Part shown: in pieces, positions 6,477 to 45,421 of the stretch
How the letters are laid out: every line of letters starts with the position of its first letter
How positions within the stretch are numbered: position 1 is the first letter of the stretch
IMG/VR virus record: IMGVR_UViG_3300042339_000806
Length of the DNA stretch: 64,000 nt
Direction: 5' to 3' (one strand)
From: a virus
Taxonomy: Duplodnaviria; Heunggongvirae; Uroviricota; Caudoviricetes
The notes under the pieces: generated by a model
Seen by the model: the letters and a program-made list of their open reading frames with translations, nothing else
Told to the model about the DNA's origin: nothing
Databases searched by the model: none
Program-made: the position numbers and the translations under genes

Positions 6477-7367
6477 ATGTCTAAAAAACATGTTGTAGTA
6501 TCCTTAAGTGGAGGAATGGACTCAAGTACATTATTACTTAGATGTCTAAAAGAGTATGATAGTGTAACAGCTATCTCATTTGACTATGGTCAAAAACACA
6601 GAGTAGAGCTAGATAGAGCTCAATCATTGGTGAATTATATAAATTCAAACGATTCTATTGAAGCTAATGGAAGTAATTACATATTTTACCCAAAAGTAAA
6701 CTATCGCCAAATCAAACTAGACGGATTAGTTGACTTACTAGATTCAGCTTTAGTAACTGGAGGTGAAGATGTACCAGAAGGTCACTATGCAGAAGATAAT
6801 ATGAAAGCAACAGTTGTTCCTAACAGAAACAAAATATTTGCTTCTATTACTCAAGCAATAGCTTTATCAGTTGCTCAAAGAACAGGTGAATTTTGTAGTA
6901 TTGCTTTAGGTATTCACGCTGGAGATCATGCAATTTATCCTGATTGTAGACAAGAATTCCGTGATGCTGATGATTATGCATTTAGAATAGGAAATTGGGG
7001 AGCTGAAAATGTAGGGTATTTTACACCTTACTTGAAAGGAGATAAATTTACTATCTTACAAGACGGAGAAGTATTATGTGAAGAATTAGGATTAAATTTT
7101 GATGAAGTTTATAAAAGAACTAACACATCTTATAAACCAATTTGGATACCTGGACCTGAAAGTAACTCAAGAGTAGAAGAAACACTTAGAACTAAATTTG
7201 GAGAATGGTACTCAGATTATAAATCAGCTTCATCAGTTGAAAGAGTAGAAGCATTTATTAAATTAGGAAGAAAAGATCCAGCTCCTTATGCAGACGAAAC
7301 AGGACCAGTAACATGGGAACATGTGGTAGCAGAGGTAACAAAAGTATTAGATAACCATAACAATTAA
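6477..7367 (+). CDS. queC: QueC-like 7-cyano-7-deazaguanine synthase (PP-loop ATPase), atypical C-terminus
   Basis: N-terminus VVVSLSGGMDSSTLL...YDSVTAISFDYGQKHRVELDRA matches QueC SGGxDS PP-loop and DYGQRH. The YPDCRQEF motif is present. The canonical C-terminal Cys4 zinc cluster is not seen; it is replaced by a ~90 aa Cys-poor extension. Confidence 0.65.
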   Translation: MSKKHVVVSLSGGMDSSTLLLRCLKEYDSVTAISFDYGQKHRVELDRAQSLVNYINSNDSIEANGSNYIFYPKVNYRQIKLDGLVDLLDSALVTGGEDVPEGHYAEDNMKATVVPNRNKIFASITQAIALSVAQRTGEFCSIALGIHAGDHAIYPDCRQEFRDADDYAFRIGNWGAENVGYFTPYLKGDKFTILQDGEVLCEELGLNFDEVYKRTNTSYKPIWIPGPESNSRVEETLRTKFGEWYSDYKSASSVERVEAFIKLGRKDPAPYADETGPVTWEHVVAEVTKVLDNHNN

Positions 7368-13643: not shown

Positions 13644-13649
13644 CAAATT

Positions 13650-13723
13650 GTCCTTTTAGCTCAGATGGTGAGAGCAGCTCGCTCATAACGAGAAGGTCAC
13701 AGGTTCGAGCCCTGTATAGGACA
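13650..13723 (+). tRNA. tRNA-Met elongator (anticodon CAT)
   Basis: TA-GCTCAGATGGTGAGAGC D-arm, loop CTCATAA, AGGTCACAGGTTCGAGCCCTGT closely resembles bacterial elongator Met. Confidence 0.55.
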
Positions 13724-13787
13724 CTAAATTTTATCCACTATGAGGTCAATTCCTTCGTCTCCAATGTAGGTTAGCTATTGCTAACTT

Positions 13788-15231: not shown

Positions 15232-15572
15232 TTTGGTGCTAAGGAGGTAAGCACAAGCCGATCCTCCAAAGCTTTATGCTGGGATAGTAGAGTTTTAAAT
15301 ATAAACTATATGATATATGTAATCATCTACAGACTAAACGGCCATGGGCCCTTTAAAACTCGCTTCCCTACAACTTAAACCAAACTGAGATAGAACTCAA
15401 CAGCTAGACATGTTACTCTTGAGGGAGACTAAAAGTGGCTAGCGACTCTAAGACTTAGTTTTTGTCCTTGCCCTTGTGGTAGTGGAAGGTTTTTGACTTT
15501 GATTTTGCATTTGACCTAGGCTATATGCTTTACATCCCAGCAACATTTTTTTAAAAATAATTAACAAAAAGC

Positions 15573-22440: not shown

Positions 22441-22655
22441 AAAAAACATTATTGACAGTGACGGTGAATGGAAATGAAATTGCATTTGTAAAAGATAGAG
22501 AACATTATTTTATTCATTGGGGAGAACAAGGAAAGCCTAGAGCAGTAAAGAAGATAACAACTCCAACTGGAAGAAAGCCTTCACAAAAATCAGCACACAG
22601 ACAGTTCCTAGAAGCAGTAAAAGCGACTAAAGTATTAAAATTCAGCAGACTATAA
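22437..22655 (+). CDS. hypothetical basic protein
   Basis: ATGA overlap with the upstream gene. Confidence 0.3.
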   Translation: MKKTLLTVTVNGNEIAFVKDREHYFIHWGEQGKPRAVKKITTPTGRKPSQKSAHRQFLEAVKATKVLKFSRL

Positions 22656-22849
22656 TGGCAGCACTAACAGATAATAAGTACGATGTATACAATTGGATAG
22701 AAAAAGTAATTGATTCTTGTACTACTTATTTTCATTTTAAGAGTGTAGATGCTCTTATAACAAACTTCGATAGAGTATATGATGATTGGGAATTAACAGG
22801 AAAATTATTAGTTTACTCAAGTCATAAATACTATAAAACAAAAAGATAA
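22655..22849 (+). CDS. hypothetical protein
   Basis: ORF only. Confidence 0.3.
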   Translation: MAALTDNKYDVYNWIEKVIDSCTTYFHFKSVDALITNFDRVYDDWELTGKLLVYSSHKYYKTKR

Positions 22850-23164
22850 ATGAGAGCACAGAAGATAAAAGTAAATAAGATTATCAAGGAGTATAAAGAA
22901 GCAACCAATAGAGAAATTTGGGAAGGAGTTAGAGATAATTTTACTTTTGGATTCATAGGAGCAACTCTAGTAGTATTCATTGCAACAAAGACAGACCTTG
23001 CAGTATTGCTAGGATATCTAGCCTACTACTTCTTTGTAGGTAAAATAGTTAACCGTCCAAAGTACGTAACAGATTTAGGAAAGCTAATAGTATTTCCATT
23101 CCCTTCAGCACTTGGAGCATTTACCGGGTATAAATTAAGTTACATTTTATTACAGTACATATGA
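22850..23164 (+). CDS. membrane protein
   Basis: 2-3 TM helices. Confidence 0.3.
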   Translation: MRAQKIKVNKIIKEYKEATNREIWEGVRDNFTFGFIGATLVVFIATKTDLAVLLGYLAYYFFVGKIVNRPKYVTDLGKLIVFPFPSALGAFTGYKLSYILLQYI

Positions 23165-24189: not shown

Positions 24190-25860
24190 ATGAATAATAA
24201 ATTTACATTCCACGTATTAGGACTTCCTCATACAATCACTAATAGAGAATTTGTAGCATGTGCTTATACACAAAAGGCTTGGAAATTCTGTAAGATGATG
24301 GGGGAAAGAGGGCATACTATCTACCATTACGGACATGAGGAGAGCGACGCTCCATATGCGGAAAACGTAACAGTTATCACCAATAAGGTATGGAAAAAAG
24401 TATACGGTACTCATGACTATAAATCTAAATTCTTTAAATATAATGTAGAGGATGAAGCCTATCAAACCTTCTATAAAAATGCTATAAAGGAAATAGGAAA
24501 GAGAAAACAGAAGAATGATTTCATTTTACCATTCTGGGGGTCAGGAGTAAGGCCGGTATGTGACGGACATCCAGATTTAATAACTGTTGAACCAGGAATA
24601 GGCTATGCAGGAGGGCATTGGGCAAATTGGAAAGTATTTGAATCTTATGCAATCTACCATGCATACTACGGACTGATGGGAGTGAATTATTGCGATATGA
24701 AAAACTACGAAGTAGTAATTCCAAACTACTTCGACCTCTCTGATTTTGAATTTAGCGATAAAAAAGAAGATTACTTTCTTTATTTAGGAAGAGTCTTTGA
24801 CGGAAAAGGAGTTAATATAGCAATCCAGGTTACTGAACACTTAGGGTATAAATTAAAGATAGCAGGACAGATTGACGCCGATGGACCTTATAAGGATGGA
24901 AAGTTTCCTCCTCATGTAGAGTTTGTAGGGTATGCTGGAACCGAAAAGAGAAAAGAACTGATGAAGAGTGCAAAAGGATGCTTCCTACCTTCACAATATG
25001 TTGAACCATTTGGAGGAGTTCAAATAGAAAATTTACTATCAGGAACACCAACAATTACCTCAGACTGGGGAGCCTTTGCAGAGAATAATATAAACGGAGT
25101 AACTGGTTACAGATGTAGAACGTTTGATGATTACTTGCAGGCAACTATAAAAATTAACAACGGAGAAATAGATTACAAGACTTGTAGAGAGTATGGAGAA
25201 AAGTTTTCATTAGAGAATGTAGCTCCTATGTACGAAAAATATTTTAAAGATATTTTAAATGTTTATGAAGGAGAAGGATGGTATCAAACAGATATTCCTA
25301 GAGGGAAGACTGATGCTTTCAATTATACAAATATGGAGGAAGAAGAAAAGCCATTTGCAGATAATCTAGCTAAGTGGATTAAAAAGTATTACAATCCTAA
25401 AAAAGTAGTCGATGTAGGTTGCGGGAGTGGGACTTATGTAAGGTCCTTAAGAAAAGAAAAAATTGATGCTATTGGGTACGATATTAACGATGTAGTAGAA
25501 GATCAGGACTTTCTCTTTAAAAAGAGTATCTTTGACCTAAACCATAAATCAGAACTAATTATCTGCCTGGAAGTAGCCGAGCACATAGAGACAGAACACA
25601 ACGACAGTATTGTTGAAAAGTTATACGAAAACCTTAAACCAGGAGGTACTTTAATCTTCACAGCAGCACATCCAGGACAGCAAGGAATAGGTCATATAAA
25701 CTGTCAAACAAAAGACTACTGGTGGGAGAAGTTTGCAGAAAAAGGATTAGTCCGAGATTTAAAAGCAGAGAAGGATTGGGAAGATTATTTTGATCAAGGA
25801 AGAGAGTACATGGGATGGTTCCGTATGAACAAGCTCTTTTTAACTAGAGTAGGATCATAA
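24190..25860 (+). CDS. bifunctional glycosyltransferase (GT-B/GT4-like) - class I SAM methyltransferase fusion
   Basis: N-terminal/central EPFGGVQIENLLSGTPTITSDWGAF resembles the GT4 E-x7-E/PVI region. C-terminal VVDVGCGSGTYV is SAM-MTase motif I, with DAIGYDIN / LIICLEV motifs II/III. Confidence 0.5.
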   Translation: MNNKFTFHVLGLPHTITNREFVACAYTQKAWKFCKMMGERGHTIYHYGHEESDAPYAENVTVITNKVWKKVYGTHDYKSKFFKYNVEDEAYQTFYKNAIKEIGKRKQKNDFILPFWGSGVRPVCDGHPDLITVEPGIGYAGGHWANWKVFESYAIYHAYYGLMGVNYCDMKNYEVVIPNYFDLSDFEFSDKKEDYFLYLGRVFDGKGVNIAIQVTEHLGYKLKIAGQIDADGPYKDGKFPPHVEFVGYAGTEKRKELMKSAKGCFLPSQYVEPFGGVQIENLLSGTPTITSDWGAFAENNINGVTGYRCRTFDDYLQATIKINNGEIDYKTCREYGEKFSLENVAPMYEKYFKDILNVYEGEGWYQTDIPRGKTDAFNYTNMEEEEKPFADNLAKWIKKYYNPKKVVDVGCGSGTYVRSLRKEKIDAIGYDINDVVEDQDFLFKKSIFDLNHKSELIICLEVAEHIETEHNDSIVEKLYENLKPGGTLIFTAAHPGQQGIGHINCQTKDYWWEKFAEKGLVRDLKAEKDWEDYFDQGREYMGWFRMNKLFLTRVGS

Positions 25861-26413: not shown

Positions 26414-26875
26414 ATGAAATTTCAAGCAACAAAACTATTTGACGGCTACTCAGCATGCTTTCGACAATGGAAAGCAGAGGGTACACATTGCAGATTTCTT
26501 CACGGCTATGCCGTATCATTCCGAGTATGGTTCGAAGGAGAACTAGACGAAAGAAACTGGGTATGGGACTTCGGAGGAATGAAAAGAGCTAAAGGAAACA
26601 TCGAAGGATATTCTCCAAAAGCATTTTTCGATTACCTATTAGATCATACAACTATTGTAGCAGAGGATGATCCTTATATGGATACATTTAAACAAATGCA
26701 TAACGACGGCGTTATACAGTTAAGAATACTTCCTGCTACAGGATGTGAACGATTTGCAGAATACTTACATTTAAAAATCAATACATTTTTACTTGAAGAA
26801 ACAAACAGTAGAGTAAGAGCTACTAAGGTAGAAGTTTACGAACATGAAAGGAACTCAGCATCTTATGGTGAGTAA
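26414..26875 (+). CDS. queD: QueD-like 6-carboxy-5,6,7,8-tetrahydropterin synthase (PTPS fold), divergent metal ligands
   Basis: GTHCRFLHGYAVSFRVWFEGE aligns with QueD CGRLHGHSFMVRLEITGE. The HGH is HGY here and the upstream His is Cys. Confidence 0.55.
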   Translation: MKFQATKLFDGYSACFRQWKAEGTHCRFLHGYAVSFRVWFEGELDERNWVWDFGGMKRAKGNIEGYSPKAFFDYLLDHTTIVAEDDPYMDTFKQMHNDGVIQLRILPATGCERFAEYLHLKINTFLLEETNSRVRATKVEVYEHERNSASYGE

Positions 26876-26992
26876 GCCTAACTTAACAATGGACGAGTTT
26901 CATCAGTACTTACAAAATGTAATAGACTCTAAATTAGATCTAAGACAGAAAGTAGTAGCGGTAGAAAGGTATATAAAACAAATAACAGGAAG

Positions 26993-27187
26993 ATGAAACT
27001 GAGTGAAATAATTTACCTAGCAACAAAAGCATTCGATAAAGGATGGGACTTTGAAACTCTAAAGTACGGAGATGATTTGTATGGAAAGGAAAAATATGCT
27101 TCTGAAGTATGGGAGTATGTAGAAGAGCTGCAAGAAATAGGAAGAACTGAATTTTACATAAAATATTGTCAATACAATTTATATTAA
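26993..27187 (+). CDS. hypothetical small protein
   Basis: ORF between queD and queE. Confidence 0.3.
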   Translation: MKLSEIIYLATKAFDKGWDFETLKYGDDLYGKEKYASEVWEYVEELQEIGRTEFYIKYCQYNLY

Positions 27188-27188
27188 G

Positions 27189-27962
27189 ATGAAAAGAATA
27201 GAAGATTATAACAAAACACTTCCCATTGTAGAGCTTTATACAGCAGTACAATCAGAAGGAAGTAGAGCAGGTTATCCAACCGTAGTAATCAGAACAACAG
27301 GCTGTACTCACAGATGTTGGTTTGGTGATGGTGGATGGTGCGATTCTTGGTACACAAGTATACATCCTGAAAAAGGACATATCAGTTTTCAAGATATTAT
27401 TAACATGTATGATGCCAATCCCCACATCACAGAGATGATGCTAACAGGAGGATCACCAACAATGCATCCAGCATTAGTAAACGAATTAACACATTTTGCA
27501 CATGAAAGAAATATTTTCATTACGATTGAGACCGAAGGAAGTCATTTTCTTGAGACAGATTACCCAATTAATCTATTATCAATCTCCCCTAAGTTCAGTA
27601 ATTCTGTCCCTAAGGTTGGCATTGCAACACCTCAAGGAGACATTACAGATGAGAAAATGATTAAACAGCATAACAAGCTAAGATTAAACTACGATGCAAT
27701 ATCCAAATCAATCTCTTATCATTCAGACTACCATTTAAAACCGGTATGGGATGGAGAGGATCAAGAAGCATTAAAAGAGATTATGAATTGTATTAAAATG
27801 CTAGACATACCAGAAGATAAAGTATGGTTCATGCCAGCAGGAGATTCAAGAGAAGCTTTATTCAAATCATATCCAAAAATGTTTGATTGGGTTAGAGATA
27901 ACGGTTATAGATTGACCTGGAGACCTCACATCATTGCATTTGAAGACCAAAGAGAAGTGTAA
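27189..27962 (+). CDS. queE: QueE-like radical-SAM 7-carboxy-7-deazaguanine synthase
   Basis: Cys triad in TTGCTHRCWFGDGGWCDSW (C-x3-C-x7-C variant of the radical SAM cluster). Size and context fit QueE. Confidence 0.55.
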   Translation: MKRIEDYNKTLPIVELYTAVQSEGSRAGYPTVVIRTTGCTHRCWFGDGGWCDSWYTSIHPEKGHISFQDIINMYDANPHITEMMLTGGSPTMHPALVNELTHFAHERNIFITIETEGSHFLETDYPINLLSISPKFSNSVPKVGIATPQGDITDEKMIKQHNKLRLNYDAISKSISYHSDYHLKPVWDGEDQEALKEIMNCIKMLDIPEDKVWFMPAGDSREALFKSYPKMFDWVRDNGYRLTWRPHIIAFEDQREV

Positions 27963-27963
27963 G

Positions 27964-28155
27964 ATGGCAGTAAAAAGAGCAACAGAGTTTGAAGTACTAA
28001 CAGTATTTCATACACTATGGAAAAGTAGAGGGCTTGAAGCAGCAACAGTAAAAAGACTTTTAAAGGAAGAGTTTGATTTAGAACTAACAGTTCTAGCAAA
28101 CGGAGAAATATCAGCACAATCACCAGACGGAAAAACTAAATATACAATTAAATAA
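27964..28155 (+). CDS. hypothetical protein (start trimmed)
   Basis: Met right after the queE stop. Confidence 0.3.
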   Translation: MAVKRATEFEVLTVFHTLWKSRGLEAATVKRLLKEEFDLELTVLANGEISAQSPDGKTKYTIK

Positions 28156-28167
28156 AAAAACAAAGTT

Positions 28168-28461
28168 ATGACATTAAAAGATCTAATCGATTTAGCAGGG
28201 GATAGAGAACTATCAAAATCATATCCAAAAGCAGATGGCCTTTACATCTGGGATTATAAGTTACAATTCAATCAAGACCTTAATTTAGAGCTAGTATTAA
28301 TACCAAGTGACTCAGGTAAGACAGGATTTAAAGATAAAGTATCTATCGAAGAATTAGTAAATTACGTATTGGAGTCAACAGATCCAGAAGTATCAGGAGA
28401 CGAAGTTATCTCACAACTACAAATTGTAGACGTGGAAGGAATTACAATCGCAAAGGTATAG
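28168..28461 (+). CDS. hypothetical acidic protein
   Basis: ORF only. Confidence 0.3.
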   Translation: MTLKDLIDLAGDRELSKSYPKADGLYIWDYKLQFNQDLNLELVLIPSDSGKTGFKDKVSIEELVNYVLESTDPEVSGDEVISQLQIVDVEGITIAKV

Positions 28462-28462
28462 T

Positions 28463-29047
28463 ATGAAGAAGTTTTTATTATTACTCTTACTTCCGTTATT
28501 AGGGTTTGGACAGTTAAGAGATAGCGTTTATGTAAAGACAGACATATACGAGGTAATGTATTCAGAGACATTAGAGCAACCATTGTGGGTAAAGTACCAA
28601 GTACTGTGCACTGGAGTAGGAGCATCTAGAAAAGGAATGGATTTCTATAAAGATAAAACAATTCATACCTCAGATGAAAAAGACTATGCATTCAATATCT
28701 ACGACAAAGGACATTGTGCACCAGCAGCTGACTTTAACTGTACTAGAGAAATGTTATTTAAAACATTCTCATACCTAAACTGTACTCTTCAAAATGAAAG
28801 ACTAAATAGAGTTCATTGGAGACTATTAGAAGACTATGAAAGACTTTTAGCCTTTTCAGAAGGACCAGTCAACGTTGAAATAAAAATAGTATTTGATAAA
28901 AATCCCAGACGAGTTCCGGCAGGTGCAGCTATTCCTACGGCTTTCTATAAGATTATCAAAACTAAGAGTAAGACAATTGCTTTTTACTTTCTAAATGAAG
29001 CACCAAAGAAAGCAACGTTTGTAGATTATCAAGTAAAAATTAAATAG
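28463..29047 (+). CDS. secreted DNA/RNA non-specific endonuclease (ββα-Me, Serratia-nuclease-like)
   Basis: Signal peptide MKKFLLLLLLPLLGFGQ. YDKGHCAPAADF matches the DRGH[LM]AP active-site motif. Confidence 0.55.
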   Translation: MKKFLLLLLLPLLGFGQLRDSVYVKTDIYEVMYSETLEQPLWVKYQVLCTGVGASRKGMDFYKDKTIHTSDEKDYAFNIYDKGHCAPAADFNCTREMLFKTFSYLNCTLQNERLNRVHWRLLEDYERLLAFSEGPVNVEIKIVFDKNPRRVPAGAAIPTAFYKIIKTKSKTIAFYFLNEAPKKATFVDYQVKIK

Positions 29048-29049
29048 TT

Positions 29050-29445
29050 ATGGCACTAAAAATAGGAAATAAAGTTTATTTAAGCTGGGATGATATCAAC
29101 ATCTTAGTAGAAGATTTAGCAAATACAATAGCAGCATCAGGAGCAGAGATTAAATCGATAACAGGTATTCAAAGAGGAGGATTAATACCAGCAGTAATGA
29201 TCTCCCACAAGCTCCACATACCTTACGTTAGTAGAATAAATAAAGATACTTTGGTAGTAGATGATATTTGTGATACAGGAGAGACGTTAAAAAATACTAT
29301 TGGAATGTATACTGCAACGCTTCATTACAAACCAACAGCAATCTTTACTCCAGACTTCTACTCAAAAGAAGTAGGAACAGAGTGGATTGTATACCCTTGG
29401 GAAAGAAATGACTCAGAAACTATTCAAGATTATTTGAAAAAATAG
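29050..29445 (+). CDS. Gpt-like xanthine/guanine phosphoribosyltransferase
   Basis: SWDDINILVEDLA...ITGIQRGGLIPAVMISHKL...LVVDDICDTGETL aligns along its length with E. coli Gpt, including the PRPP motif VVDDxxDTG. Confidence 0.6.
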   Translation: MALKIGNKVYLSWDDINILVEDLANTIAASGAEIKSITGIQRGGLIPAVMISHKLHIPYVSRINKDTLVVDDICDTGETLKNTIGMYTATLHYKPTAIFTPDFYSKEVGTEWIVYPWERNDSETIQDYLKK

Positions 29446-29516
29446 TTGCAGGATAAAGTAAAAAATGTTATATTAAATAAAACGGAGTCGTAGAACCTCC
29501 ATAAAAACAATCTTAT

Positions 29517-30224
29517 ATGTCAAATAAAAAATTTATCGACGGTACAGAATTAGTACAAGCCGGATTCGCTAATGGTATTTCCTCTCAATTGGCAAAAAAA
29601 CAACTAACAGAAGGTCCAGAAGCAAGATTAACTGAAGTAGAAAAGCAACACATCATTGAAGATGCAGCAGAAGCTTTCGGACAATTCCTTTCAGCTTTAG
29701 GATGTGATTGGCAGAATGATCCAAATTCATCTGATACTCCTAAAAGAGTTGCAAAAGCATACGTAAACGATTTATGGGCAGGTCGATTTGAACCACTAAC
29801 AAGAATTACAGCATTCCCTTCTGATGGTTATGATGGAATAGTACAAGAGAGTAATATACCAGTTACCTCAATGTGCTCACATCACCACCAAACAATTTCA
29901 GGAGAGGTAAGTATAGCTTATGTTCCTTCAGCAGATGGAAAGGTAGTTGGGCTTTCAAAATTAAATCGAATTGTAGAGCAGTTTGCTAGACGTGGAGCTA
30001 TTCAAGAGCAGTTAACAGTTGCAATTCATAATGCAGTAGATAAAATCTGTGAAGGTAATCTAGGAGTAGCAGTAGCAATTTCAGCAACACATAACTGTGT
30101 ATCGTGTAGAGGGATTAAACATCAGGGAGCTTCAATGCAAACAGCAAAGTTAACAGGGTGTTTCTTAGATGAAGCATCAGCAAGAGCAGAATTCTATACA
30201 AATATTAAACTTGGAAAAAAATAA
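29517..30224 (+). CDS. folE: GTP cyclohydrolase I
   Basis: CSHHHQTISGEV (CEHH-type zinc motif), QEQLTVAIHNA (QERLT), ~230 aa. Confidence 0.8.
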   Translation: MSNKKFIDGTELVQAGFANGISSQLAKKQLTEGPEARLTEVEKQHIIEDAAEAFGQFLSALGCDWQNDPNSSDTPKRVAKAYVNDLWAGRFEPLTRITAFPSDGYDGIVQESNIPVTSMCSHHHQTISGEVSIAYVPSADGKVVGLSKLNRIVEQFARRGAIQEQLTVAIHNAVDKICEGNLGVAVAISATHNCVSCRGIKHQGASMQTAKLTGCFLDEASARAEFYTNIKLGKK

Positions 30225-30239
30225 CTAAAACCAAACATT

Positions 30240-30437
30240 ATGAATTATTGGCAAGTAACTGTGCAATTGGAGCACGAAAATGACCGAGGTCGTATTCAAA
30301 GAGTAAAAGAACTTTATTTAGTAGATGCAATTTCAGCAACAGAAGCTGAAGCAAAGATCTATACAGAGTTCGAAGGAGAGTCTAACTTCGCAGTAGTAGG
30401 AGTTAATCAATCTAAAATTATTAAAGTAATTGAATAA
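30240..30437 (+). CDS. hypothetical protein
   Basis: ORF only. Confidence 0.3.
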   Translation: MNYWQVTVQLEHENDRGRIQRVKELYLVDAISATEAEAKIYTEFEGESNFAVVGVNQSKIIKVIE

Positions 30438-30441
30438 TAAG

Positions 30442-30465
30442 TTGGCTCTTCGGAGCCAATTTCTT
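30442..30465 (+). terminator. rho-independent terminator
   Basis: ttggctc-ttcg-gagccaa hairpin plus TTT. A degenerate promoter box follows. Confidence 0.5.
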
Positions 30466-30489
30466 ATATTAATAAAAAAGTAAAAAGTT

Positions 30490-31002
30490 ATGATTACAGA
30501 TCCAAAAGTACCTTTTATTGATGAGGTAGAGGAATTTAATGCCGTAATGGGTAAACCTAATAACTATGAACCAACTATCCCCGAAAGAAAAGAATGGGAA
30601 TTTGTATACAATTTCATCCTTGAGGAATTGGAAGAATATAGAGAAGCTTGCGAAGCAGGAGACATCGTTGAGGTTCTGGATGCTTTGTGCGATATTACTT
30701 ATGTTGCCACTGGGAACGGTACTATGTTACATGGCCTTAAGGATAAGATATGGCCAGCATATCAAGAAGTTCAAGCTTCAAATCTATCAAAAGCTTGCCA
30801 AACAGAAGAAGACGCTAAAGCAACTGTCATTCAGAGATCGAGTGAGCAAGGTGAGGAGTGTCATTACGAAAAAGTTGGAGAGTATTACGTTGTTTATAGA
30901 ACAAGAGATAGAAAAGTAATGAAGAATGTAAATTACTTCCGACCAGATCTTTCTCAGTTTTTTACTCAAGAGCAGTTAAGTAAATTTAATAGAATTAAAT
31001 AA
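30490..31002 (+). CDS. MazG-like nucleoside triphosphate pyrophosphohydrolase
   Basis: EFNAVMG...ILEELEEYREACEAGDIVEVLDALCDITYV carries the MazG/HisE E-x2-E-x12-E-x3-D acidic helix pattern. Confidence 0.5.
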   Translation: MITDPKVPFIDEVEEFNAVMGKPNNYEPTIPERKEWEFVYNFILEELEEYREACEAGDIVEVLDALCDITYVATGNGTMLHGLKDKIWPAYQEVQASNLSKACQTEEDAKATVIQRSSEQGEECHYEKVGEYYVVYRTRDRKVMKNVNYFRPDLSQFFTQEQLSKFNRIK

Positions 31003-31205
31003 TGCAAGCAGCACTAGACCATTTAGAAAAGCATAAAGTGTTTATTGATACTTTAGGTATAGATATGATTCCTTTATCAGAGGCATATAAAGCAGTTGAG
31101 AAGTCTATCGATAGTCAACTGGCAGAAGTTATGGAAACATTACAAGCACAGTTAGGAGGATTAGTAGAAGATTTACAAGATATAACACCAGAAGATAATG
31201 ATTAA
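31002..31205 (+). CDS. hypothetical protein
   Basis: ORF only. Confidence 0.3.
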   Translation: MQAALDHLEKHKVFIDTLGIDMIPLSEAYKAVEKSIDSQLAEVMETLQAQLGGLVEDLQDITPEDND

Positions 31206-31992
31206 GATAGCACACGAATCACCGAAGAGTATCTTTAAAGAAGTACAGAAGTATACTGACTATGATTATGCATTAGTGCATTTATTTGAAGAAGATCCAG
31301 AATACTTAAAACAGTTTCAAGATGCTAAAGAAGCAGGTAGAGAAATTATTTTAGATAATTCTATCTTTGAATTAGAAGAAGCTTTTGATGCAGAGAAGTT
31401 TGCAGGCTGGGTATTAGAATTAAAGCCAGATTGGTATATAGTTCCGGATGCTTTAGAGGATGCAAAGAAGACTGTACAGCAAATGACAGAATGGAATAAC
31501 AAGTATAAAAATCTTCCAGGAAAGAAAATAGGAGTTGTTCAAGGAAAGACTTACAGTCAAATTAAGACTTGTTATGAGTATATGGATAAGATTGCAAATG
31601 TAGATATGATTGCAATTTCATTCGACTACTCGTACTATACAAATACTATTTCACATCCTAACAAGTATGTTAGTTGGATGCTAGGAAGGGTTAAGCTACT
31701 AGGAGATCTATTGAGAGACGGTGTTATAAACGAAGAGAAGAAGCATCACCTATTGGGATGTGGATTACCTCAAGAGTTTTCTTTCTACTCAGACTATAAA
31801 TGGATCTATTCTTTAGATACTTCTAATCCAGTTGTACATGGTATAAAAGGAGTTGAGTATAGAGCAGATGGATTATGGTCAAAAGAGTCTCAAAAGTTAT
31901 TTGAATTAATCAACTACGTACCGGAAGATACGAATATGATTCTTCAGAACATTCATAAATTCAGATGGTTTGCAAATGGACGCAAAGTATAA
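31198..31992 (+). CDS. tRNA-guanine-transglycosylase-family protein, DpdA-like 7-deazaguanine DNA transglycosylase candidate
   Basis: KKIGVVQGKTYSQIK resembles the TGT LFGIVQGG motif. HHLLGCGLPQEF resembles the TGT RYLMGVG(K/T)P motif. No Cys-x-Cys-x2-Cys zinc site is seen. Confidence 0.5.
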   Translation: MIKIAHESPKSIFKEVQKYTDYDYALVHLFEEDPEYLKQFQDAKEAGREIILDNSIFELEEAFDAEKFAGWVLELKPDWYIVPDALEDAKKTVQQMTEWNNKYKNLPGKKIGVVQGKTYSQIKTCYEYMDKIANVDMIAISFDYSYYTNTISHPNKYVSWMLGRVKLLGDLLRDGVINEEKKHHLLGCGLPQEFSFYSDYKWIYSLDTSNPVVHGIKGVEYRADGLWSKESQKLFELINYVPEDTNMILQNIHKFRWFANGRKV

Positions 31993-32158
31993 GATAGGGG
32001 AAATGGTTATTATAAATCTCGATAATGAGATTATAGATGCCGAAGTATTTGGAATAGTAGACAGTAATTCAGGAGGAAAACCTTCGTACAGTTTAAGAGT
32101 GAAAGGAAATTTTATCTTTATGAATGAGGATAGAATAATAAGTATATCACATGAATAG
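31970..32158 (+). CDS. hypothetical small protein
   Basis: ORF only. Confidence 0.3.
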   Translation: MQMDAKYKIGEMVIINLDNEIIDAEVFGIVDSNSGGKPSYSLRVKGNFIFMNEDRIISISHE

Positions 32159-32678
32159 ACCTTGGATAGCATTCTTTAGTCAAACAGGATCAGAGATCGT
32201 AGAAGTATCAAAGCTACTAGGAAGATGGCCTGACCTTATTATTACAAACGAAAGACCAGAACATCTTAGAAAGATTCATCCTGCTTTAGAAAATAAGCAC
32301 TTAATCTTCGTAGACAATAAGCCTTCAGAAGAAGAACTATTTCCTCTATTGGCTCAGTATGATAATGCTTTAGTAACTCTTCATGGATGGTTAAGGATTA
32401 TGCCACCAGGTATTTGTAATCGATTTGAAATCTATAATGGACATCCAGGACTTATAACTCAGTATCCAGAACTAAAAGGAAAAGATCCTCAGCAAAAAGC
32501 TTTTGACTTAGGATTAGAACATTCTGGATGTGTTATTCATAGAGTAACAGAAGGAGTGGATGAAGGAGCTATACTTTTACAGAGACAAGTTTCTATAAAA
32601 GGGTTGGAAATAGGAGAATTATTTCATATCTTACATAGTATATCAGTAAGTCTTTGGGTAGACTTTTTAAAAAATTAG
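32151..32678 (+). CDS. formyltransferase-fold protein (PurN/Fmt N-domain-like); candidate preQ1 N-formyltransferase
   Basis: EIYNGHPGLITQYPELKG resembles the N-x-H-P-S-L-L-P-x-x-R-G formyltransferase loop. HSGCVIHRVTEGVDEGAIL resembles SG(C/A)TVH-x-V-x-x-x-D-x-G-x-I. Confidence 0.55.
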   Translation: MNRPWIAFFSQTGSEIVEVSKLLGRWPDLIITNERPEHLRKIHPALENKHLIFVDNKPSEEELFPLLAQYDNALVTLHGWLRIMPPGICNRFEIYNGHPGLITQYPELKGKDPQQKAFDLGLEHSGCVIHRVTEGVDEGAILLQRQVSIKGLEIGELFHILHSISVSLWVDFLKN

Positions 32679-32680
32679 TT

Positions 32681-33205
32681 ATGAAAAGAATAGCATTAGT
32701 AGGAGCATCATCAGTAGGGAAGACTACAGTATACGAATTACTTAAAAGTAAATTACCTGAGTATGATTTTATAAATGAATCAACAAGAACGGTTGGTAGT
32801 TATGGATTTCCTATTAATGAAGCAGGAACTTCTGAAACACAGCTTGCTATTTCTTCTTTCCATTTAGAGGCATTATTAGCTACTAAAGATGTAATACTTG
32901 ATAGATGTTATTTAGATCTATTAGTTTATTCTACTTATATGGATAATTTATCCGATAGTGCTTATACATACATCTTAGATACTTGGTTAAGAGTTAAAGA
33001 TCAATATACACATTTTATTTATTTCCCTATTGAATTTGCTTCTGTAGATGATGGAGTAAGGAGTGTAAATGAAGGATGGAGAGAAGCAATTGATAAGCAG
33101 TTTGAAATTAACTTAAAGTCAATTAAGTTTGCTGGAGGAGATTACTTAACAGTAACAGGAAGTCCTAATCAAAGAGTTGAACAAATATTAAACTATATAA
33201 AATAA
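32681..33205 (+). CDS. AAA_28/NadR-like P-loop nucleoside kinase
   Basis: IALVGASSVGKTTVYELL...INESTRTV resembles the NadR ribosylnicotinamide-kinase-type P-loop (GxxxxGKTTL...E.aR). Start trimmed to the TAGTTATG junction. Confidence 0.45.
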   Translation: MKRIALVGASSVGKTTVYELLKSKLPEYDFINESTRTVGSYGFPINEAGTSETQLAISSFHLEALLATKDVILDRCYLDLLVYSTYMDNLSDSAYTYILDTWLRVKDQYTHFIYFPIEFASVDDGVRSVNEGWREAIDKQFEINLKSIKFAGGDYLTVTGSPNQRVEQILNYIK

Positions 33206-33206
33206 A

Positions 33207-34133
33207 ATGACACAAGAATTAAATCAAGCAGAAGTTGTAAAGATTGCAGGAAAGCATCTAGGACAAGTAGGTGGAGCAGGATATAGCGATACTTACGATC
33301 CAAGTCTATTGGTAGAAATTCCACGTTACTTGAATAGAGAAGCGTATGGAATTGACGATAATAACCTTCCATTTGTTGGAGGAGATGTTTGGAATGCATA
33401 CGAAGTATCTGCAATCACTACAAAAGGATTACCAGTAGTAGGAATGTTAAAGATTTGGTATCCAGCCGATTCAAAACTTCACGTAGAGTCTAAATCAATT
33501 AAATTGTATTTGAATTCATTCAATATGACTCAATTGGGAGATACAGATCATGAATGTATTAAGTTACTAAAAGAAAGAGTAAAGAAAGACCTATCTGACT
33601 TACTACAGACAAAAGTACAGGTAGAGATGTTTACATCAGAGCATTCTCCAAGCTATGCCTTTAAAGGATATGCACCATTGGATGCTTTGGTTGACTTAAA
33701 CAAAATTGAATTTACTTCTTACCATTCAGACGCTACACAGTTACAGTCAGAAGAAGTATCTGAAGACTTTGAAATTGGAGAAATAAAAATACAGTCTAAT
33801 CTTTTAAGATCAAATTGTAGAGTAACAAACCAACCAGACTGGGGTGATGTATTTATTCATATTAAACCAACAGCAGGAGTTGTTCCTGATTTAGAATCAT
33901 TAGCAAAATATATTGTAAGTCACAGACAAGTAAGTCACTTCCACGAAGAGATTTGTGAAATGATCTACATGCACTTAAAAGAAGCTTACAATCCAGAAGA
34001 ATTAATGGTAGCTTGTCTTTATACTCGTAGAGGAGGATTGGATATTAATCCAATTAGAGCTTCCCATAAGAAATTAATCCCAGGATTCTTTACAGATATT
34101 ACTTGTAGAATGGCTAAAACATTACGTCAGTAA
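33207..34133 (+). CDS. queF: NADPH-dependent 7-cyano-7-deazaguanine reductase QueF (two-domain/type II)
   Basis: QueF motif ESKSIKLYLNSF (E(S/L)K(S/A)hK(L/Y)(Y/F/W)) and catalytic Cys in NCRVTNQPDWGDV (cf. CPVTGQPDW). Confidence 0.8.
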   Translation: MTQELNQAEVVKIAGKHLGQVGGAGYSDTYDPSLLVEIPRYLNREAYGIDDNNLPFVGGDVWNAYEVSAITTKGLPVVGMLKIWYPADSKLHVESKSIKLYLNSFNMTQLGDTDHECIKLLKERVKKDLSDLLQTKVQVEMFTSEHSPSYAFKGYAPLDALVDLNKIEFTSYHSDATQLQSEEVSEDFEIGEIKIQSNLLRSNCRVTNQPDWGDVFIHIKPTAGVVPDLESLAKYIVSHRQVSHFHEEICEMIYMHLKEAYNPEELMVACLYTRRGGLDINPIRASHKKLIPGFFTDITCRMAKTLRQ

Positions 34134-34925: not shown

Positions 34926-37259
34926 ATGCAAATAGAAAAAAAGTATTACCACGTCGATAGTATCGAGACTATCAACCTTCTTATCGAGCATATTAATCAG
35001 TCAGAAGTTCTTGCTTACGATACTGAGACAACTGGACTGAATGTAAGAAGGGATCAAGTTGTAGGATGGTCCGTATCAGGAGAAGAAGGAATAGGATTCT
35101 ATCTTCCAACTCAGAAATGGAATACAGAATTAAATCAATTAGAGGAATGTATCATTGGCGGAAAAGGAGCACATGACATTACTAAAAAGTTACTCCCGCT
35201 GCTTAAGGGTAAGAGACTAGTAATGCACAATGCTTCTTTTGACTGCCGAATTACTAAGAACTATTACGGAGTATCTTTATTAGAAGATCTTTGGGTAGAT
35301 ACAGCTCTCCTTGTTCATACAGTACAGGAAGAAGGAGCTGGTATGGGAGTGTTTGGACTAAAGGCATTAGCTATCTCTATTCAGAAAGAGATCGGACTAA
35401 ATGTAGAAGAAGCAGCTAACAAAGAGCAAGTAGAGCTAAAAGAATCTATTAAAGCAAATGGAGGATCAACTACAAAAGATCTTTACGAGATCTTTAAAGC
35501 AGATATGGCAATTCTTTCCAAATATGCTGCAGCCGATACGGATTTAACCCTTAGAGTTTGTAATCACTTCTTAAAAGTATTAAAGGAAGAAGGACTAGAG
35601 AAATTCTTCTTTGAAGAAGAAGTAATGCCTCTTTACAAAGAAGTAACTGTTCCAATGGAAGAGATAGGAGTAGCATTAAATCTTCCGTTACTAGAAAAGA
35701 CTAGAGATGATATTACAAATGACCTACAATCGAATAAAAAGATAGTAATTGACAGTATACTAAGCATTCCAGAGGCAAAGGAATGGGTAGTTGATACAGC
35801 ACTTTATACTTACCCTCCTTCACACAAAGGTAACTGGGCACAGAATTTAATTATGCTTCACTCTCTTCCTTTAGAGAGAAGCGAAAAGACTGGAAAGTAT
35901 TCTTTAACTAAAAAAGCTATTGACGAATTAGAAGAGAGTAATATAAAACAATTTCTACTAACAGGAGACTTAAACCTACTAGACGAAATGGAAGTTGTTA
36001 GAATTTCTATGTCGATGTGGAAGGAAGAGAATGAAGGAGACTATTTGAATATTCAATCTAAGAAACACTTAGGTGAGATTGCATTCAAGTATATGGGAAT
36101 CAAACCTCTTACTCAGACTAAAAAAGGTCAAGATCAATTTGACATGGATATGTTAGAGGAGTTATCTAAGACTTATGAATGGGCAAATAACCTTAGAACA
36201 TATAATAAGTTACTAAAAATTAAATCAACTTACATCGATAGATTCCTAGACGGTCAAGAGGACGGAAGATACTACTTTTACTACAAGCAGCATGGTACGG
36301 TATCAGGAAGGTATGGATCAGATGCTCAGCAATTACCAAAGCCTAAAGAAGAAGGAGAAGATACCCCGCTACTTGTAAAGTATACAAATGTAGTAAGAGA
36401 GTTCTTAATTGCAGGAGAAGGAAGAAAGTTAATCGATAATGACTATACTTCTCTAGAACCTCACTGCTTTGCTTCTGTAGCAGGTGATATTAATCTTCAA
36501 GAGATTTTTAACAACGGATGGGATTTCTATTCTACTGTTGCTATTAGAACTGAGAAGCTTGATCAAGATAAAGTAAAATATCCAGACGGTGTTTCACCTG
36601 ATACTAAATCTCCTATCTTCTTAAAGAAATTAGATCCAGTAAAAAGAAATCAAGCTAAGGCTTACTCTCTAGGAATTGCATACGGAATGGAAGCATATGC
36701 TCTGGCAAAGACTTTAAATATATCTCAGAAAGAAGCTGATACTCTTGTAGCAGGTTACCTAGATGGTTTTCCTCAATTAAAAGAGTGGAGAGTTAACTCT
36801 AGAGAGCAAGTAAAAAGGCTAGGGTATATCCAAAATAAAGTAGGACGAATCAGACACTTACCAAAAGTGAAATTGATCTTTGAAAAGTTTGGAGATCAAG
36901 TATTGGATTGGAGATTTAGAAAGAGTCTTGAACAGCAGTACGGAAAAGATCCTGTAATGCAGATGTATAGAGATTATCGAAATGGATTAAACAACTGCTT
37001 GAACTACCAGTTACAGTCTTTAGCGGCAGCGGTTGTGAATAGAGCAGCAATTCAGATTAATAGAAAAGCAAAAGAGTTAGGAATAGACGGTAGAGTACAA
37101 GCTCAGATTCATGACCAGTTGATCATAAATGTAAGAGAAGATCAAGCAGAAATGTTTATGCCTTACGTTCAAGAGTTGATGGAATTAACAACACAACTAC
37201 CGGGAGTAACTCTAAAGGCACCACCACAGATAGCAAATAACTTTGCAGAAGGTCATTAG
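34926..37259 (+). CDS. polA: family A DNA polymerase (Pol I-like) with 3'-5' exonuclease domain
   Basis: Exo I LAYDTETTGL. Motif A DYTSLEPHCFA (DYSQIELR-like). Motif B RNQAKAYSLGIAYGM. Motif C QIHDQLI. Confidence 0.9.
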   Translation: MQIEKKYYHVDSIETINLLIEHINQSEVLAYDTETTGLNVRRDQVVGWSVSGEEGIGFYLPTQKWNTELNQLEECIIGGKGAHDITKKLLPLLKGKRLVMHNASFDCRITKNYYGVSLLEDLWVDTALLVHTVQEEGAGMGVFGLKALAISIQKEIGLNVEEAANKEQVELKESIKANGGSTTKDLYEIFKADMAILSKYAAADTDLTLRVCNHFLKVLKEEGLEKFFFEEEVMPLYKEVTVPMEEIGVALNLPLLEKTRDDITNDLQSNKKIVIDSILSIPEAKEWVVDTALYTYPPSHKGNWAQNLIMLHSLPLERSEKTGKYSLTKKAIDELEESNIKQFLLTGDLNLLDEMEVVRISMSMWKEENEGDYLNIQSKKHLGEIAFKYMGIKPLTQTKKGQDQFDMDMLEELSKTYEWANNLRTYNKLLKIKSTYIDRFLDGQEDGRYYFYYKQHGTVSGRYGSDAQQLPKPKEEGEDTPLLVKYTNVVREFLIAGEGRKLIDNDYTSLEPHCFASVAGDINLQEIFNNGWDFYSTVAIRTEKLDQDKVKYPDGVSPDTKSPIFLKKLDPVKRNQAKAYSLGIAYGMEAYALAKTLNISQKEADTLVAGYLDGFPQLKEWRVNSREQVKRLGYIQNKVGRIRHLPKVKLIFEKFGDQVLDWRFRKSLEQQYGKDPVMQMYRDYRNGLNNCLNYQLQSLAAAVVNRAAIQINRKAKELGIDGRVQAQIHDQLIINVREDQAEMFMPYVQELMELTTQLPGVTLKAPPQIANNFAEGH

Positions 37260-37322: not shown

Positions 37323-37628
37323 ATGTCACAAGAGTTATCAGCTAACAGCGACAGAGTTATTGTAAAGCCTGTTGAATCAGGAGAAGAAAGATTCGGAAGT
37401 ATTATCATTCCGGATATGGGGAAAGAAAAGCCAGAAATGGGTGAAGTAGTTTCCGTAGGTCCAGGACGCCAGTCTGAATTTGGACAATTTATTAGAGTAG
37501 AAGCCAGTGTAGGAGATGTGGTATTGATTCCTAAGATAGGAACAATCCGTATTGACTTTGAAGGTCAAGAATACTTTATACTTCCAGACAGAGAAATTTT
37601 AGCAACAATCAGAAAATCACAAGAGTAG
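37323..37628 (+). CDS. groS: co-chaperonin GroES
   Basis: 101 aa with IVKPVE...GSIIIPD mobile-loop region; immediately upstream of GroEL. Confidence 0.85.
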   Translation: MSQELSANSDRVIVKPVESGEERFGSIIIPDMGKEKPEMGEVVSVGPGRQSEFGQFIRVEASVGDVVLIPKIGTIRIDFEGQEYFILPDREILATIRKSQE

Positions 37629-37630
37629 TT

Positions 37631-45419: not shown

Positions 45420-45421
45420 TT

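Follow-up and report, generated by a model that had tools for sequence, protein, structure and literature searches.

This study concerns a window of 64,000 nucleotides (the whole stretch of DNA that was analysed) from a virus of the Caudoviricetes, IMG/VR record IMGVR_UViG_3300042339_000806, and within it a run of closely packed, co-oriented genes at 26414–34133, all on the plus strand, which encodes a 7-deazaguanine DNA-modification system. Throughout, proteins are compared with those of Flavobacterium phage immuto_2-6A, whose genes are cited as immuto_n. All five proteins of the route to 7-aminomethyl-7-deazaguanine (preQ1), namely FolE, QueD, QueE and QueC as well as QueF, were recovered with family-level profile matches. 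FolE (GTP cyclohydrolase I; 29517..30224, +), the first step of the pathway, scores 151.3 bits on Pfam GTP_cyclohydroI and is 89% identical to immuto_61. QueD (6-carboxytetrahydropterin synthase; 26414..26875, +) matches Pfam PTPS with 55.9 bits and the QueD-like family phrog_2389 at 3.9e-38, with 61% identity to immuto_55. The radical-SAM 7-carboxy-7-deazaguanine (CDG) synthase QueE (27189..27962, +) is recognised by Pfam Radical_SAM, by the NCBIfam QueE models and by phrog_2076 (1.2e-53), and is 95% identical to immuto_57. The gene for QueC, the synthase of 7-cyano-7-deazaguanine (preQ0), lies at 6477..7367 (+), about 24 kb upstream of the main cluster; the protein scores 117.8 bits on Pfam QueC and is 82% identical to immuto_28, and in immuto_2-6A too QueC is separated from the main cluster. 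QueF, the bimodular NADPH-dependent preQ0 reductase (33207..34133, +), scores 116.7 bits on Pfam QueF_N, 74.6 bits on Pfam QueF and 262.5 bits on TIGR03138, with 82% identity to its immuto_2-6A counterpart. Its ESKSIKLY and CRVTNQPDW motifs are both read in the translation; by the presence of QueF, a preliminary description of this DNA had placed the phage on the preQ1 branch. The downstream neighbour of the run is a family A DNA polymerase, Pol A (34926..37259, +), 96% identical to immuto_72, and Pol A comes after the cluster in the immuto-like loci generally.

The region as a whole has 87% DNA identity, across 82% of its length, to immuto_2-6A and its two sister isolates, and the gene order from QueD to Pol A is identical in immuto_2-6A. 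By this kinship we classify the source phage as an uncultivated immuto-like (Immutovirus-type) Flavobacterium myovirus and a new species-level relative of immuto_2-6A. The two differ in that the source phage, at about 87% DNA identity, is a different species-level genome with a QueD only 61% identical, carries an endonuclease gene inside the cluster and a glycosyltransferase-methyltransferase gene inserted upstream of it, and has no counterpart of the thymidylate synthase ThyA at the corresponding position. In the DNA of immuto_2-6A the deoxyguanosine (dG) peak is absent and 7-(formylamino)methyl-7-deazaguanine (fdPreQ1), identified against a synthetic standard, is found in its place (Cui et al., NAR 2023, PMC10516641). 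Both the DpdA3 subfamily, a protein resembling tRNA-guanine transglycosylase (TGT), and DpdN, a PF00551 protein, were named from the immuto_2-6A cluster (PMC10516641). The genes that the preliminary description had listed, for QueD, QueE, FolE, QueF, the TGT-like protein, a formyltransferase, a phosphoribosyltransferase (PRT), a kinase, a MazG-like protein and QueC, are all present, and the system it had drawn from them, a preQ1-branch locus in which a DpdA-type transglycosylase and a formyltransferase yield an fdPreQ1-type base, matches the published one. Its core (the preQ1 branch, DpdA3, DpdN and fdPreQ1) is thus right but already published, and the window is another member of the same group. 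The replacement of dG by fdPreQ1 in virion DNA was measured for immuto_2-6A and is predicted for the source phage. As the cluster gene order is repeated in more than 100 viral contigs, the clustering is not due to chance.

For comparative genomics, we collected IMG/VR loci around homologues of DpdA3 (80 loci), of the kinase (79) and of the PRT (80), and annotated them with hidden Markov models built iteratively from the window proteins. DpdA3 itself (31198..31992, +) is 96% identical to immuto_2-6A DpdA3, 44% to gp056 of Campylobacter phage CP220 and 22% to CGPG_00065 of Cellulophaga phage phiST. The open reading frame (ORF) carries the GVVQG and LLGCGLP motifs and gave no match in Pfam, in NCBIfam or in a profile search of PDB sequences. 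In an AlphaFold2 model (pLDDT 87.3), however, its fold is that of the expected family: the best 50 Foldseek matches in the PDB are all tRNA-guanine transglycosylases, with E values of 1e-8 to 4e-7 and TM scores of about 0.6. On this model, DpdA3 is joined to the TGT superfamily by fold only, not by sequence profile. Accordingly, of the two ORFs to which the preliminary description had assigned base transfer and acylation, profiles recognise the formyltransferase and not the TGT-like protein; the latter, proposed as a DpdA-like candidate, was borne out instead by its identity to immuto_2-6A DpdA3 and by its predicted fold. With 264 aa it is shorter than TGT (340–390), and it lacks the C-terminal zinc-site motif (CxCxxC...H), having only two cysteines (C125 and C188). 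Invariant among 29 diverse DpdA3 proteins are D53, D84, Q115-G116, H184-x-L186-G187 and D207, and by motif order D53, D84 and D207 would pair with Asp102, Asp156 and Asp280 of TGT. We also compared the net charge and isoelectric point (pI) of DpdA3 with those of the DNA-acting DpdA1 type as a clue to substrate, and dropped this line because there was no difference; the DpdA1-type proteins are about 40 residues longer and equally acidic.

The DpdA3 family comprises 3,367 clusters at 90% identity, and the exact DpdA3 protein of the source phage is listed in 73 metagenome-collection blocks, so that this member is abundant in the environment. Among 185,579 prokaryotic genomes we found nine DpdA3 loci, all on contigs of metagenome-assembled genomes, which gave no cellular context of independent value; by this distribution the family is essentially viral.

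DpdN (32151..32678, +), 87% identical to immuto_67, is a PurN-like formyltransferase by its scores on Pfam Formyl_trans_N (57.3 bits) and TIGR00639 PurN (59 bits). The catalytic Asn-His-Asp set is kept, as the N-G-H-P and V-D-E-G motifs align to PurN, and an invariant loop, FFSQTG(S/T)EI, aligns with the loop of PurN that binds the phosphate of glycinamide ribonucleotide (GAR).

Three further genes, for the PRT, a P-loop kinase that we call KinA and the MazG-like protein, had been singled out as not explained by known Dpd systems. Indeed, none of the three is mentioned in PMC10516641 or in Hutinet et al., 2019 (PMC6884629), and in the open literature that was searched we found no paper tying 7-deazaguanine or DpdA to a phosphoribosyltransferase, a kinase or a pre-replicative route.

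The PRT (29050..29445, +) is a Gpt-like mini protein of 131 aa, 85% identical to its immuto_2-6A counterpart. It scores 30 bits on Pfam Pribosyltran, and its best NCBIfam match is the Gpt model NF006613, where its 57.6 bits fall short of the cutoff of 138. Aligned with E. coli Gpt, it keeps the RGG pyrophosphate (PPi) loop, the VVDDICDTGET phosphoribosyl-pyrophosphate (PRPP) motif and, at the C-terminus, the segment WIVYPWE, opposite W134...D140 of the E. coli protein; we take this W-x-x-x-P-W-(D/E) segment of Gpt to be base-stacking. An aspartate aligned with Gpt Asp92, presumably the partner of purine N7, is invariant in the PRT family. From the PPi loop to the PRPP motif, the PRT is some 25 residues shorter than E. 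coli Gpt, phiST gp064 and the xanthine phosphoribosyltransferase (XPRT) of Brevundimonas phage MaInes; what it lacks there is the beta-hairpin, or flexible catalytic loop, of Gpt. With a score below the curated cutoff and without this hairpin, the protein had been described too strongly as a bona fide Gpt.

The neighbourhoods of this PRT subfamily are dominated by FolE. Among the best 80 IMG/VR loci, with pathway genes counted within 6 kb, 65 (81%) contain Que or FolE genes; FolE is found in 56 and is adjacent or fused to the PRT in 39, while DpdA3 occurs in 33 and DpdA1 in five. In Vibrio phage 1.207.B, the FolE protein (307 aa) has a PRT homologue as its N-terminal domain, with the FolE domain starting from residue 124; the protein of Stenotrophomonas phage ply2008005c is built likewise, and in both the order is QueE-QueC-QueD-[PRT-FolE]-DpdA-clamp-PolA. 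The FolE-fused PRT domains share the deletion of the approximately 25-residue hairpin. Fusions of this kind, with an intact PRPP motif, lie at 7007–7930 of locus L004, 5754–6647 of L005 and 2806–3708 of L249 (an IMG/VR contig); publicly, the fusion proteins are annotated as GTP cyclohydrolase I only. In phage MaInes the order is dNMP kinase-FolE-XPRT. Elsewhere, the PRT slot beside FolE is held by a protein of the hypoxanthine-guanine phosphoribosyltransferase (HGPRT) type that scores 154–155 bits on TIGR01203 (cutoff 150; L053 7720–8226 and L057 3932–4438), by its profile match a non-orthologous replacement with another 6-oxopurine PRT. One DpdA3 cluster also contains an HGPRT-type enzyme with 132 bits on the same model (L074 14385–14921). 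Because the PRT is adjacent or fused to FolE even in DpdA1 clusters, because HGPRT can take its place and because its product would be a ribonucleotide, we favour salvage of guanine as its function over phosphoribosylation of preQ1.

These observations bear directly on the route proposed in the preliminary description, from base to NMP to NTP with removal of competing dGTP. Spelled out, the PRT would phosphoribosylate preQ1 or formyl-preQ1, the kinase would convert the product to the diphosphate, a phage ribonucleotide reductase would reduce it, and Pol A would incorporate the dNTP while MazG removed dGTP. The kinase and MazG-like genes are indeed present, immuto_2-6A encodes NrdA/NrdF, the PRT is divergent from canonical Gpt, and its clustering with FolE, QueD and QueE reportedly has a parallel in the toyocamycin and tubercidin gene clusters. 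However, members of this PRT subfamily also stand next to FolE, or are fused with it, in clusters with a DpdA1-type transglycosylase. Insertion of free preQ0 into DNA by the DpdA1 family has been demonstrated by experiment (PMC10516641), and draining the free base into ribonucleotides would be counterproductive there. In L053 and L057 a protein of the HGPRTase model fills the PRT slot. The invariant aspartate aligned with Gpt Asp92 (if it is indeed the partner of purine N7), the ribonucleotide rather than deoxynucleotide nature of the product and the lack of linkage between the PRT and the kinase point the same way, and DpdA3 would be left without a role. The step from base to NMP by the Gpt-like enzyme, and from there to NTP, is thus not upheld by the link of the PRT to FolE, the HGPRT substitution and the nature of the product. 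We regard the route as the least supported of those considered and as very improbable.

KinA (32681..33205, +) is 86% identical to its immuto_2-6A counterpart and scores 45.5 bits on Pfam AAA_28 (gathering threshold 27). Its start is most likely the ATG at 32681 and not the TTG at 32654; this ATG lies three bases past the DpdN stop codon, and QueF in turn starts two bases past the KinA stop codon. In a search with the family profile against the PDB, the ribosylnicotinamide kinase (RNK) domain of NadR was matched at 7e-7 and deoxynucleoside kinase at 1e-5, and the LID motif aligns with VDDGLRS of NadR. The Walker A motif, a DR motif and the LID motif DDGxRS are invariant in 22 KinA homologues. 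The AlphaFold2 model (pLDDT 87.5) has as its nearest folds in Foldseek human deoxyguanosine kinase (2ocp, E 2.6e-6), Mycoplasma deoxyadenosine kinase, human deoxycytidine kinase and NadR (6gyf, TMq 0.78), with thymidylate kinase lower. We conclude that KinA is a predicted P-loop kinase of the deoxynucleoside-kinase or NadR-RNK-like type, and that "NadR-like nucleoside kinase", the name first given to it, was a fair description.

The linkage of KinA to DpdA3 is the strongest new pattern in our data. In 75 of 89 clusters (DpdA3 genes non-redundant at 95% identity, in a locus sample biased by its mode of retrieval), KinA lies at most 4 kb from DpdA3. In the census seeded with DpdA3, the DpdA3-DpdN-KinA-QueF block was found in every locus with enough flanking sequence, down to 48% DpdA3 identity; in the census seeded with the kinase, all contigs that are not cut at that point have DpdA3 just upstream, L154 excepted. 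KinA is also kept across different end products: it is present in CP220, whose DNA contains dADG (2'-deoxy-7-amido-7-deazaguanosine), and, judged by gene content, in clusters with DpdA3, KinA and QueC only, and in clusters with DpdA3, KinA and QueF but without DpdN. Two simple roles for KinA were considered and set aside. Service to QueF or to NAD supply is rejected because KinA is also encoded in CP220 and in the QueC-only clusters, none of which showed a QueF near DpdA3. That KinA is a universal partner of DpdA3 is rejected in view of a second group of DpdA3 clusters (group 2) and of locus L256, where no KinA was found near DpdA3. Other P-loop proteins stand beside DpdA3 in phiST (CGPG_00066, with the motif GEICSGKDT), Bacillus phage BSTP12 and Weizmannia phage Youna2 (the last two with the motif GCDKTGKST...DRFHFPDDxVY).

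Does the company of these genes have any meaning at all? A plain explanation would be that a large phage carries the PRT, kinase and MazG-like genes for its ordinary nucleotide metabolism, and that they lie in the replication module by chance, with no particular link to the modification pathway. MazG, dUTPase and HD-domain enzymes are common in phage replication modules, as with the HD protein of Vibrio phage 1.207.B, and some DpdA3 clusters are without a kinase or a MazG gene. In addition, homologues of KinA, about 29% identical, occur in 89 Streptomyces phages (relatives of Coruscant, of about 130 kb). In the one such neighbourhood inspected, that of Coruscant (L254 6001–6606), no 7-deazaguanine genes were found nearby, and the search with DpdA3 matched no Streptomyces phage. 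The Coruscant homologue lies in a replication/recombination module near a MazG-like gene. Chance assembly nevertheless fits poorly with the PRT-FolE fusions and the 81% co-occurrence of the PRT subfamily with Que or FolE genes. Nor does it account for the start and stop codons of DpdA3-(DpdN)-KinA-QueF lying few bases apart, an arrangement kept down to 48% DpdA3 identity and in Campylobacter phages, or for non-orthologous replacements that keep the same slots filled. We therefore consider it improbable as an explanation of the three genes together. As KinA homologues occur in Streptomyces phages, in the one neighbourhood inspected without 7-deazaguanine genes, the family itself would be one of general nucleoside or nucleotide kinases, a member of which was recruited here.

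The third gene encodes a predicted all-alpha NTP pyrophosphohydrolase of the MazG/PRA-PH type (30490..31002, +; 95% identical to its immuto_2-6A counterpart). Its identity as MazG-like, already proposed, holds up by matches to Pfam PRA-PH (40.1 bits, cutoff 21.3) and phrog_671 (1.3e-28) and by the acidic motif, which is kept; E45, E46, E49, D64 and D68 are invariant. Profile search of the PDB gave only marginal matches (3nl9 and DR2231), too distant to indicate specificity. The position of the gene, between FolE or the PRT and DpdA3 or the polymerase, is conserved: in almost every immuto-like locus DpdA3 follows it at a distance of about 700 bp, and in group-2 clusters it comes right behind the PRT. 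No MazG-type gene was found near DpdA3 in a clade of 48–54% DpdA3 identity. In L190, L201 and L211, which have no MazG after the PRT, the slot before the polymerase is held by a dUTPase or a dCTP-deaminase-like protein, while in L081 a canonical MazG and a dUTPase are both present. Since dUTPase-type enzymes occupy this same slot and no dUTPase is found among the immuto annotations, a dUTPase-like house-cleaning role, as judged from these neighbourhoods, would be at least as likely for the MazG-like protein as the removal of dGTP. A role as dihydroneopterin-triphosphate pyrophosphatase was considered and is unlikely, because the enzyme would compete with QueD for its substrate.

Our preferred interpretation, in which we have somewhat more confidence than doubt, is that the locus is an fdPreQ1 hypermodification module and that the three extra genes are conserved accessory genes of a "guanine economy". 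By homology with immuto_2-6A, FolE, QueD, QueE and QueC together with QueF would convert GTP to the free base preQ1. DpdA3, acting as a minimal TGT-fold transglycosylase, would exchange preQ1 for guanine, and DpdN would formylate the aminomethyl group of preQ1 either before or after its insertion, so that the product would be DNA without detectable dG. For the accessory genes, comparative genomics suggests that the PRT would recapture free guanine as GMP, that KinA would phosphorylate a nucleoside or nucleotide of the guanine or 7-deazaguanine type, and that the MazG-like protein would act as a (d)NTP pyrophosphohydrolase. The guanine would stem from one-for-one release by DpdA3 and possibly from nuclease breakdown of unmodified nucleic acid; for a 160-kb genome at 34–35% G+C the load is approximately 55,000 guanines. 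In TGT enzymology free guanine competes with the incoming base. Its conversion to GMP would thus remove the competing product of the exchange, and would also refill the GTP pool on which FolE draws.

Several observations weigh against this interpretation. The loss of the hairpin and a score far below the Gpt cutoff weaken the case for catalytic competence of the PRT as well as the assignment of its substrate. ToyH and TubE, the Streptomyces PRTs of toyocamycin and tubercidin synthesis, are encoded with FolE, QueD and QueE homologues, as the phage PRT is, and are said to act on preQ0 or CDG with PRPP, so clustering alone is no proof of guanine specificity; by their description these nucleoside-antibiotic enzymes are set apart from the phage PRT, which is Gpt-like, exchangeable with HGPRT and co-occurs with DpdA. 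Guanine recycling, moreover, leaves unaccounted for why KinA is tied to DpdA3 and not to FolE or the PRT. Among the 89 clusters, those without KinA within 4 kb of DpdA3 are phiST, eleven group-2 clusters and two distant loci; L256 has no kinase near DpdA3, and the Streptomyces phage homologues described above place its family in genomes that the DpdA3 search did not match. Finally, activity tests of DpdA3 in E. coli failed (PMC10516641).

The main rival reading is that DpdA3 does not act on DNA. It might instead be a TGT-fold 2'-deoxyribosyl-transferase that swaps the base of deoxyguanosine or dGMP before replication. The NTP hydrolase (the MazG-like protein here, an HD-domain protein in CP220) would convert dGTP to dGMP or dG, thereby both supplying the substrate and removing the competitor. 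DpdA3 would then exchange the base, KinA would phosphorylate the product, DpdN would formylate it and cellular kinases would make the dNTP, which the adjacent polymerase would incorporate, while the PRT would recycle the released guanine. Such a scheme would explain 100% replacement, and complete replacement of G is indeed seen only in DpdA3 phages, for which DNA modification in E. coli was not demonstrable (PMC10516641). The same paper reports the 7-amido-7-deazaguanine (ADG) nucleoside in the cytoplasm of CP220-infected cells (PMC10516641). Hutinet et al. (2019; PMC6884629) mention an earlier proposal of a modified-dGTP route for Campylobacter phages, and they left open "undetected 2'-deoxyribosyltransferases". 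From our own data, the predicted fold of KinA is nearest to deoxyguanosine, deoxyadenosine and deoxycytidine kinases, and the gene adjoins DpdA3 across phyla. Three phage lineages with complete replacement have an NTP hydrolase next to DpdA3, namely the immuto-like phages (MazG), phiST (MazG/dUTPase-like) and CP220 (HD domain), and the invariant loop of DpdN aligns with the GAR-phosphate loop of PurN, an enzyme that acts on a 5'-phosphoribosyl amine.

The layout also resembles the pre-replicative triads of other phages, gp56 dCTPase, gp42 dCMP hydroxymethylase and gp1 dNMP kinase in T4, and MazZ, PurZ and DatZ in S-2L, in which genes for an NTP pyrophosphatase that removes the canonical dNTP, for an enzyme that makes the modified dNMP and for a kinase acting on the latter stand beside the polymerase gene, and the canonical base is fully replaced. 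Candidates of the triad type (NTP hydrolase, DpdA3 and KinA) are co-located in the source phage, although not universally among DpdA3 clusters. Unlike in the T4 and S-2L systems, the modifying enzyme of the source phage, read here from gene content, is of the TGT fold, and its relatives act on polymers; the characterised members of the TGT/DpdA superfamily all act on polynucleotides. Neither the size nor the charge of DpdA3, compared with the DpdA1 type, gives a hint of a small substrate. Group-2 clusters and L256 have no kinase nearby, a MazG-type gene is missing near DpdA3 in the clade of 48–54% identity, dUTPase-type enzymes can take the place of MazG in its slot, and the window holds no candidate for a further NMP kinase step. 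On balance, we judge the pre-replicative swap to be unlikely. Of the pre-replicative idea in the preliminary description, then, the part that survives as a minority reading is the one that runs through KinA, with its linkage to DpdA3 and its fold like that of deoxynucleoside kinases, and not the one through the Gpt-like enzyme.

The matter of interest is how a phage replaces every guanine. If the swap did take place before replication, the 7-deazaguanine genomes of the immuto and CP220 types would be built pre-replicatively, contrary to the current statement that every modification of this kind is post-replicative. If the kinase were needed for modification, the accepted "post-replicative only" model of 7-deazaguanine DNA would need revision, and it would also be clear which enzymes are required to produce DNA fully substituted with 7-deazaguanine, be it in vitro or in engineered hosts. 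New leads in either case are the PRT-FolE fusion, the DpdA3-kinase module and the interchangeable NTP-hydrolase slot.

Returning to the fdPreQ1 module with accessory guanine-economy genes, comparison with characterised systems shows which parts are shared. In the Campylobacter Firehammervirus CP220, where dG is completely replaced by dADG, the DpdA3 homologue is followed by a KinA homologue (gp057, 29% identical, E 1e-15), as in the source phage. Immediately upstream of DpdA3, CP220 has an HD-domain NTP phosphohydrolase fused to a P-loop domain where the source phage has the MazG-like protein, and its base is ADG; DpdN, QueF and a Gpt-like PRT were not found within 9 kb of DpdA3, and the PRT search gave no match in the CP220 group. 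Cellulophaga phage phiST, in which DpdA3 and DpdL go with complete replacement of dG by 7-deazaguanine, shares the order QueD-QueE-FolE-MazG-like-...-DpdA3-Pol. Its QueE and FolE are 75% and 73% identical to those of the source phage, in contrast to only 22% for DpdA3, and its kinase and MazG-like protein belong to other families. The P-loop protein CGPG_00066 adjoins DpdA3 in phiST, a Gpt-like PRT lies beside a P-loop kinase elsewhere in the genome, and QueC, QueF and DpdN were not found in the stretch examined.

DpdA1 clusters of the Queuovirinae type (QueE-QueC-QueD-FolE-DpdA-clamp-PolA) likewise place the 7-deazaguanine pathway beside Pol A, and the FolE proteins of 1.207.B, ply2008005c and their relatives begin with a fused domain that is homologous to the PRT. 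Replacement by the DpdA1 subfamily is partial and sequence-selective, unlike in DpdA3 phages, and no KinA, DpdN or QueF was seen in these loci. In bacteria, DpdA has as its partner DpdB, a ParB-like ATPase, and the pairing of a transglycosylase with an NTP-using protein is similar to that of DpdA3 with KinA. KinA differs from DpdB in resembling small-molecule kinases of the deoxynucleoside-kinase or NadR type, and residues are also conserved in it outside the P-loop, at places that serve acceptor binding in kinases of this type.

DpdA3 loci of other types were met along the way. The group-2 clusters (L179, L190, L199, L211, L218 and about ten more) have the order DpdA3-QueC-...-QueD-QueE-FolE-PRT, with a DpdA3 32–38% identical to that of the window. 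MazG follows the PRT in L179 and L199, in the latter with a family B polymerase next, while a dUTPase or dCTP-deaminase-like protein follows it in L190 and L211. QueF, DpdN and a P-loop kinase were not found near DpdA3 in this group, and its DNA base would be expected to be preQ0 or ADG. Bacillus phage BSTP12 and its relatives and Weizmannia phage Youna2 encode a protein like DpdA3 (L252 4336–5684 and L253 4387–5705), which the DpdA3 profile matches with E about 1e-27. Its gene comes after QueC-QueD-QueE-FolE and is flanked by Pol A and by the gene for a P-loop protein of 185 aa, and depending on the record it carries the GenBank label "NadR", "polynucleotide kinase" or "integrase". A transporter gene of the YhhQ/Vut_1 type, a family for uptake of 7-deazaguanine precursors, lies near DpdA3 in L256 (3359–7816) and L090 (5784–6377). 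As L256 has this transporter and none of the biosynthesis genes within 7 kb of DpdA3, it suggests a phage that imports its base instead of making it. In a distant DpdA3 clade represented by L079, genes for a 2-oxoglutarate-Fe(II) oxygenase, for a DUF6445 protein and for a protein resembling dCTP deaminase stand among the Que genes (8978–9583, 10803–11468 and 15043–15567) and may mark further variants of the modification.

Within the gene run of the window there are also four genes outside the pathway and the accessory set. The DNA/RNA non-specific endonuclease (28463..29047, +), which the preliminary description does not name, scores 88.7 bits on Pfam Endonuclease_NS and is 83% identical to immuto_12. 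It has a hydrophobic, signal-peptide-like N-terminus (MKKFLLLLLLPLLGFGQ) and a pI of 9.1. Its immuto orthologue is encoded about 20 kb away, beside NrdA and a resolvase, and in relatives the gene separates either QueE from the PRT or KinA from QueF. The enzyme might degrade unmodified nucleic acid while the modified phage DNA is spared. The remaining three are small conserved ORFs. One (30240..30437, +) is a DUF4494 fragment with 44 bits on the Pfam model and 94% identity to immuto_62, and 20 ORFs lie at the same position across the loci of the first census. Another (31002..31205, +; 67 aa) is 46% identical to immuto_64 and is called as a gene in the metagenome record, and the third (31970..32158, +; 62 aa) is 84% identical to the immuto_66 region.

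Lastly, we note some features of the window outside the gene run. Twenty tRNA genes are packed into about 4 kb (9638–13724), where the corresponding region of immuto_2-6A has four annotated; among them are Tyr(GTA), Asn(GTT) and Asp(GTC). Queuosine normally goes into four tRNA families, of which these are three, and the phage would itself make much preQ1. At 22655–22850, the corresponding position, there is no counterpart of the immuto thymidylate synthase (immuto_47) and its three downstream genes, and ThyA has either been lost or lies outside the window. Just upstream of the cluster, 24190–25860 encodes a protein of 556 aa, in which a group-1 glycosyltransferase is fused with a SAM-methyltransferase and which has no counterpart in the first 75 kb of immuto_2-6A. 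Further downstream, a stretch of about 11 kb (43977–54785) has 64–97% protein identity to immuto genes annotated as glycosyltransferases, WecE-type aminotransferases, an epimerase and a methyltransferase, which might act on virion proteins, on the host surface or on DNA. Right after Pol A, at 37323–39265, lie the genes for GroES and GroEL, which are 100% and 95% identical to their immuto counterparts.

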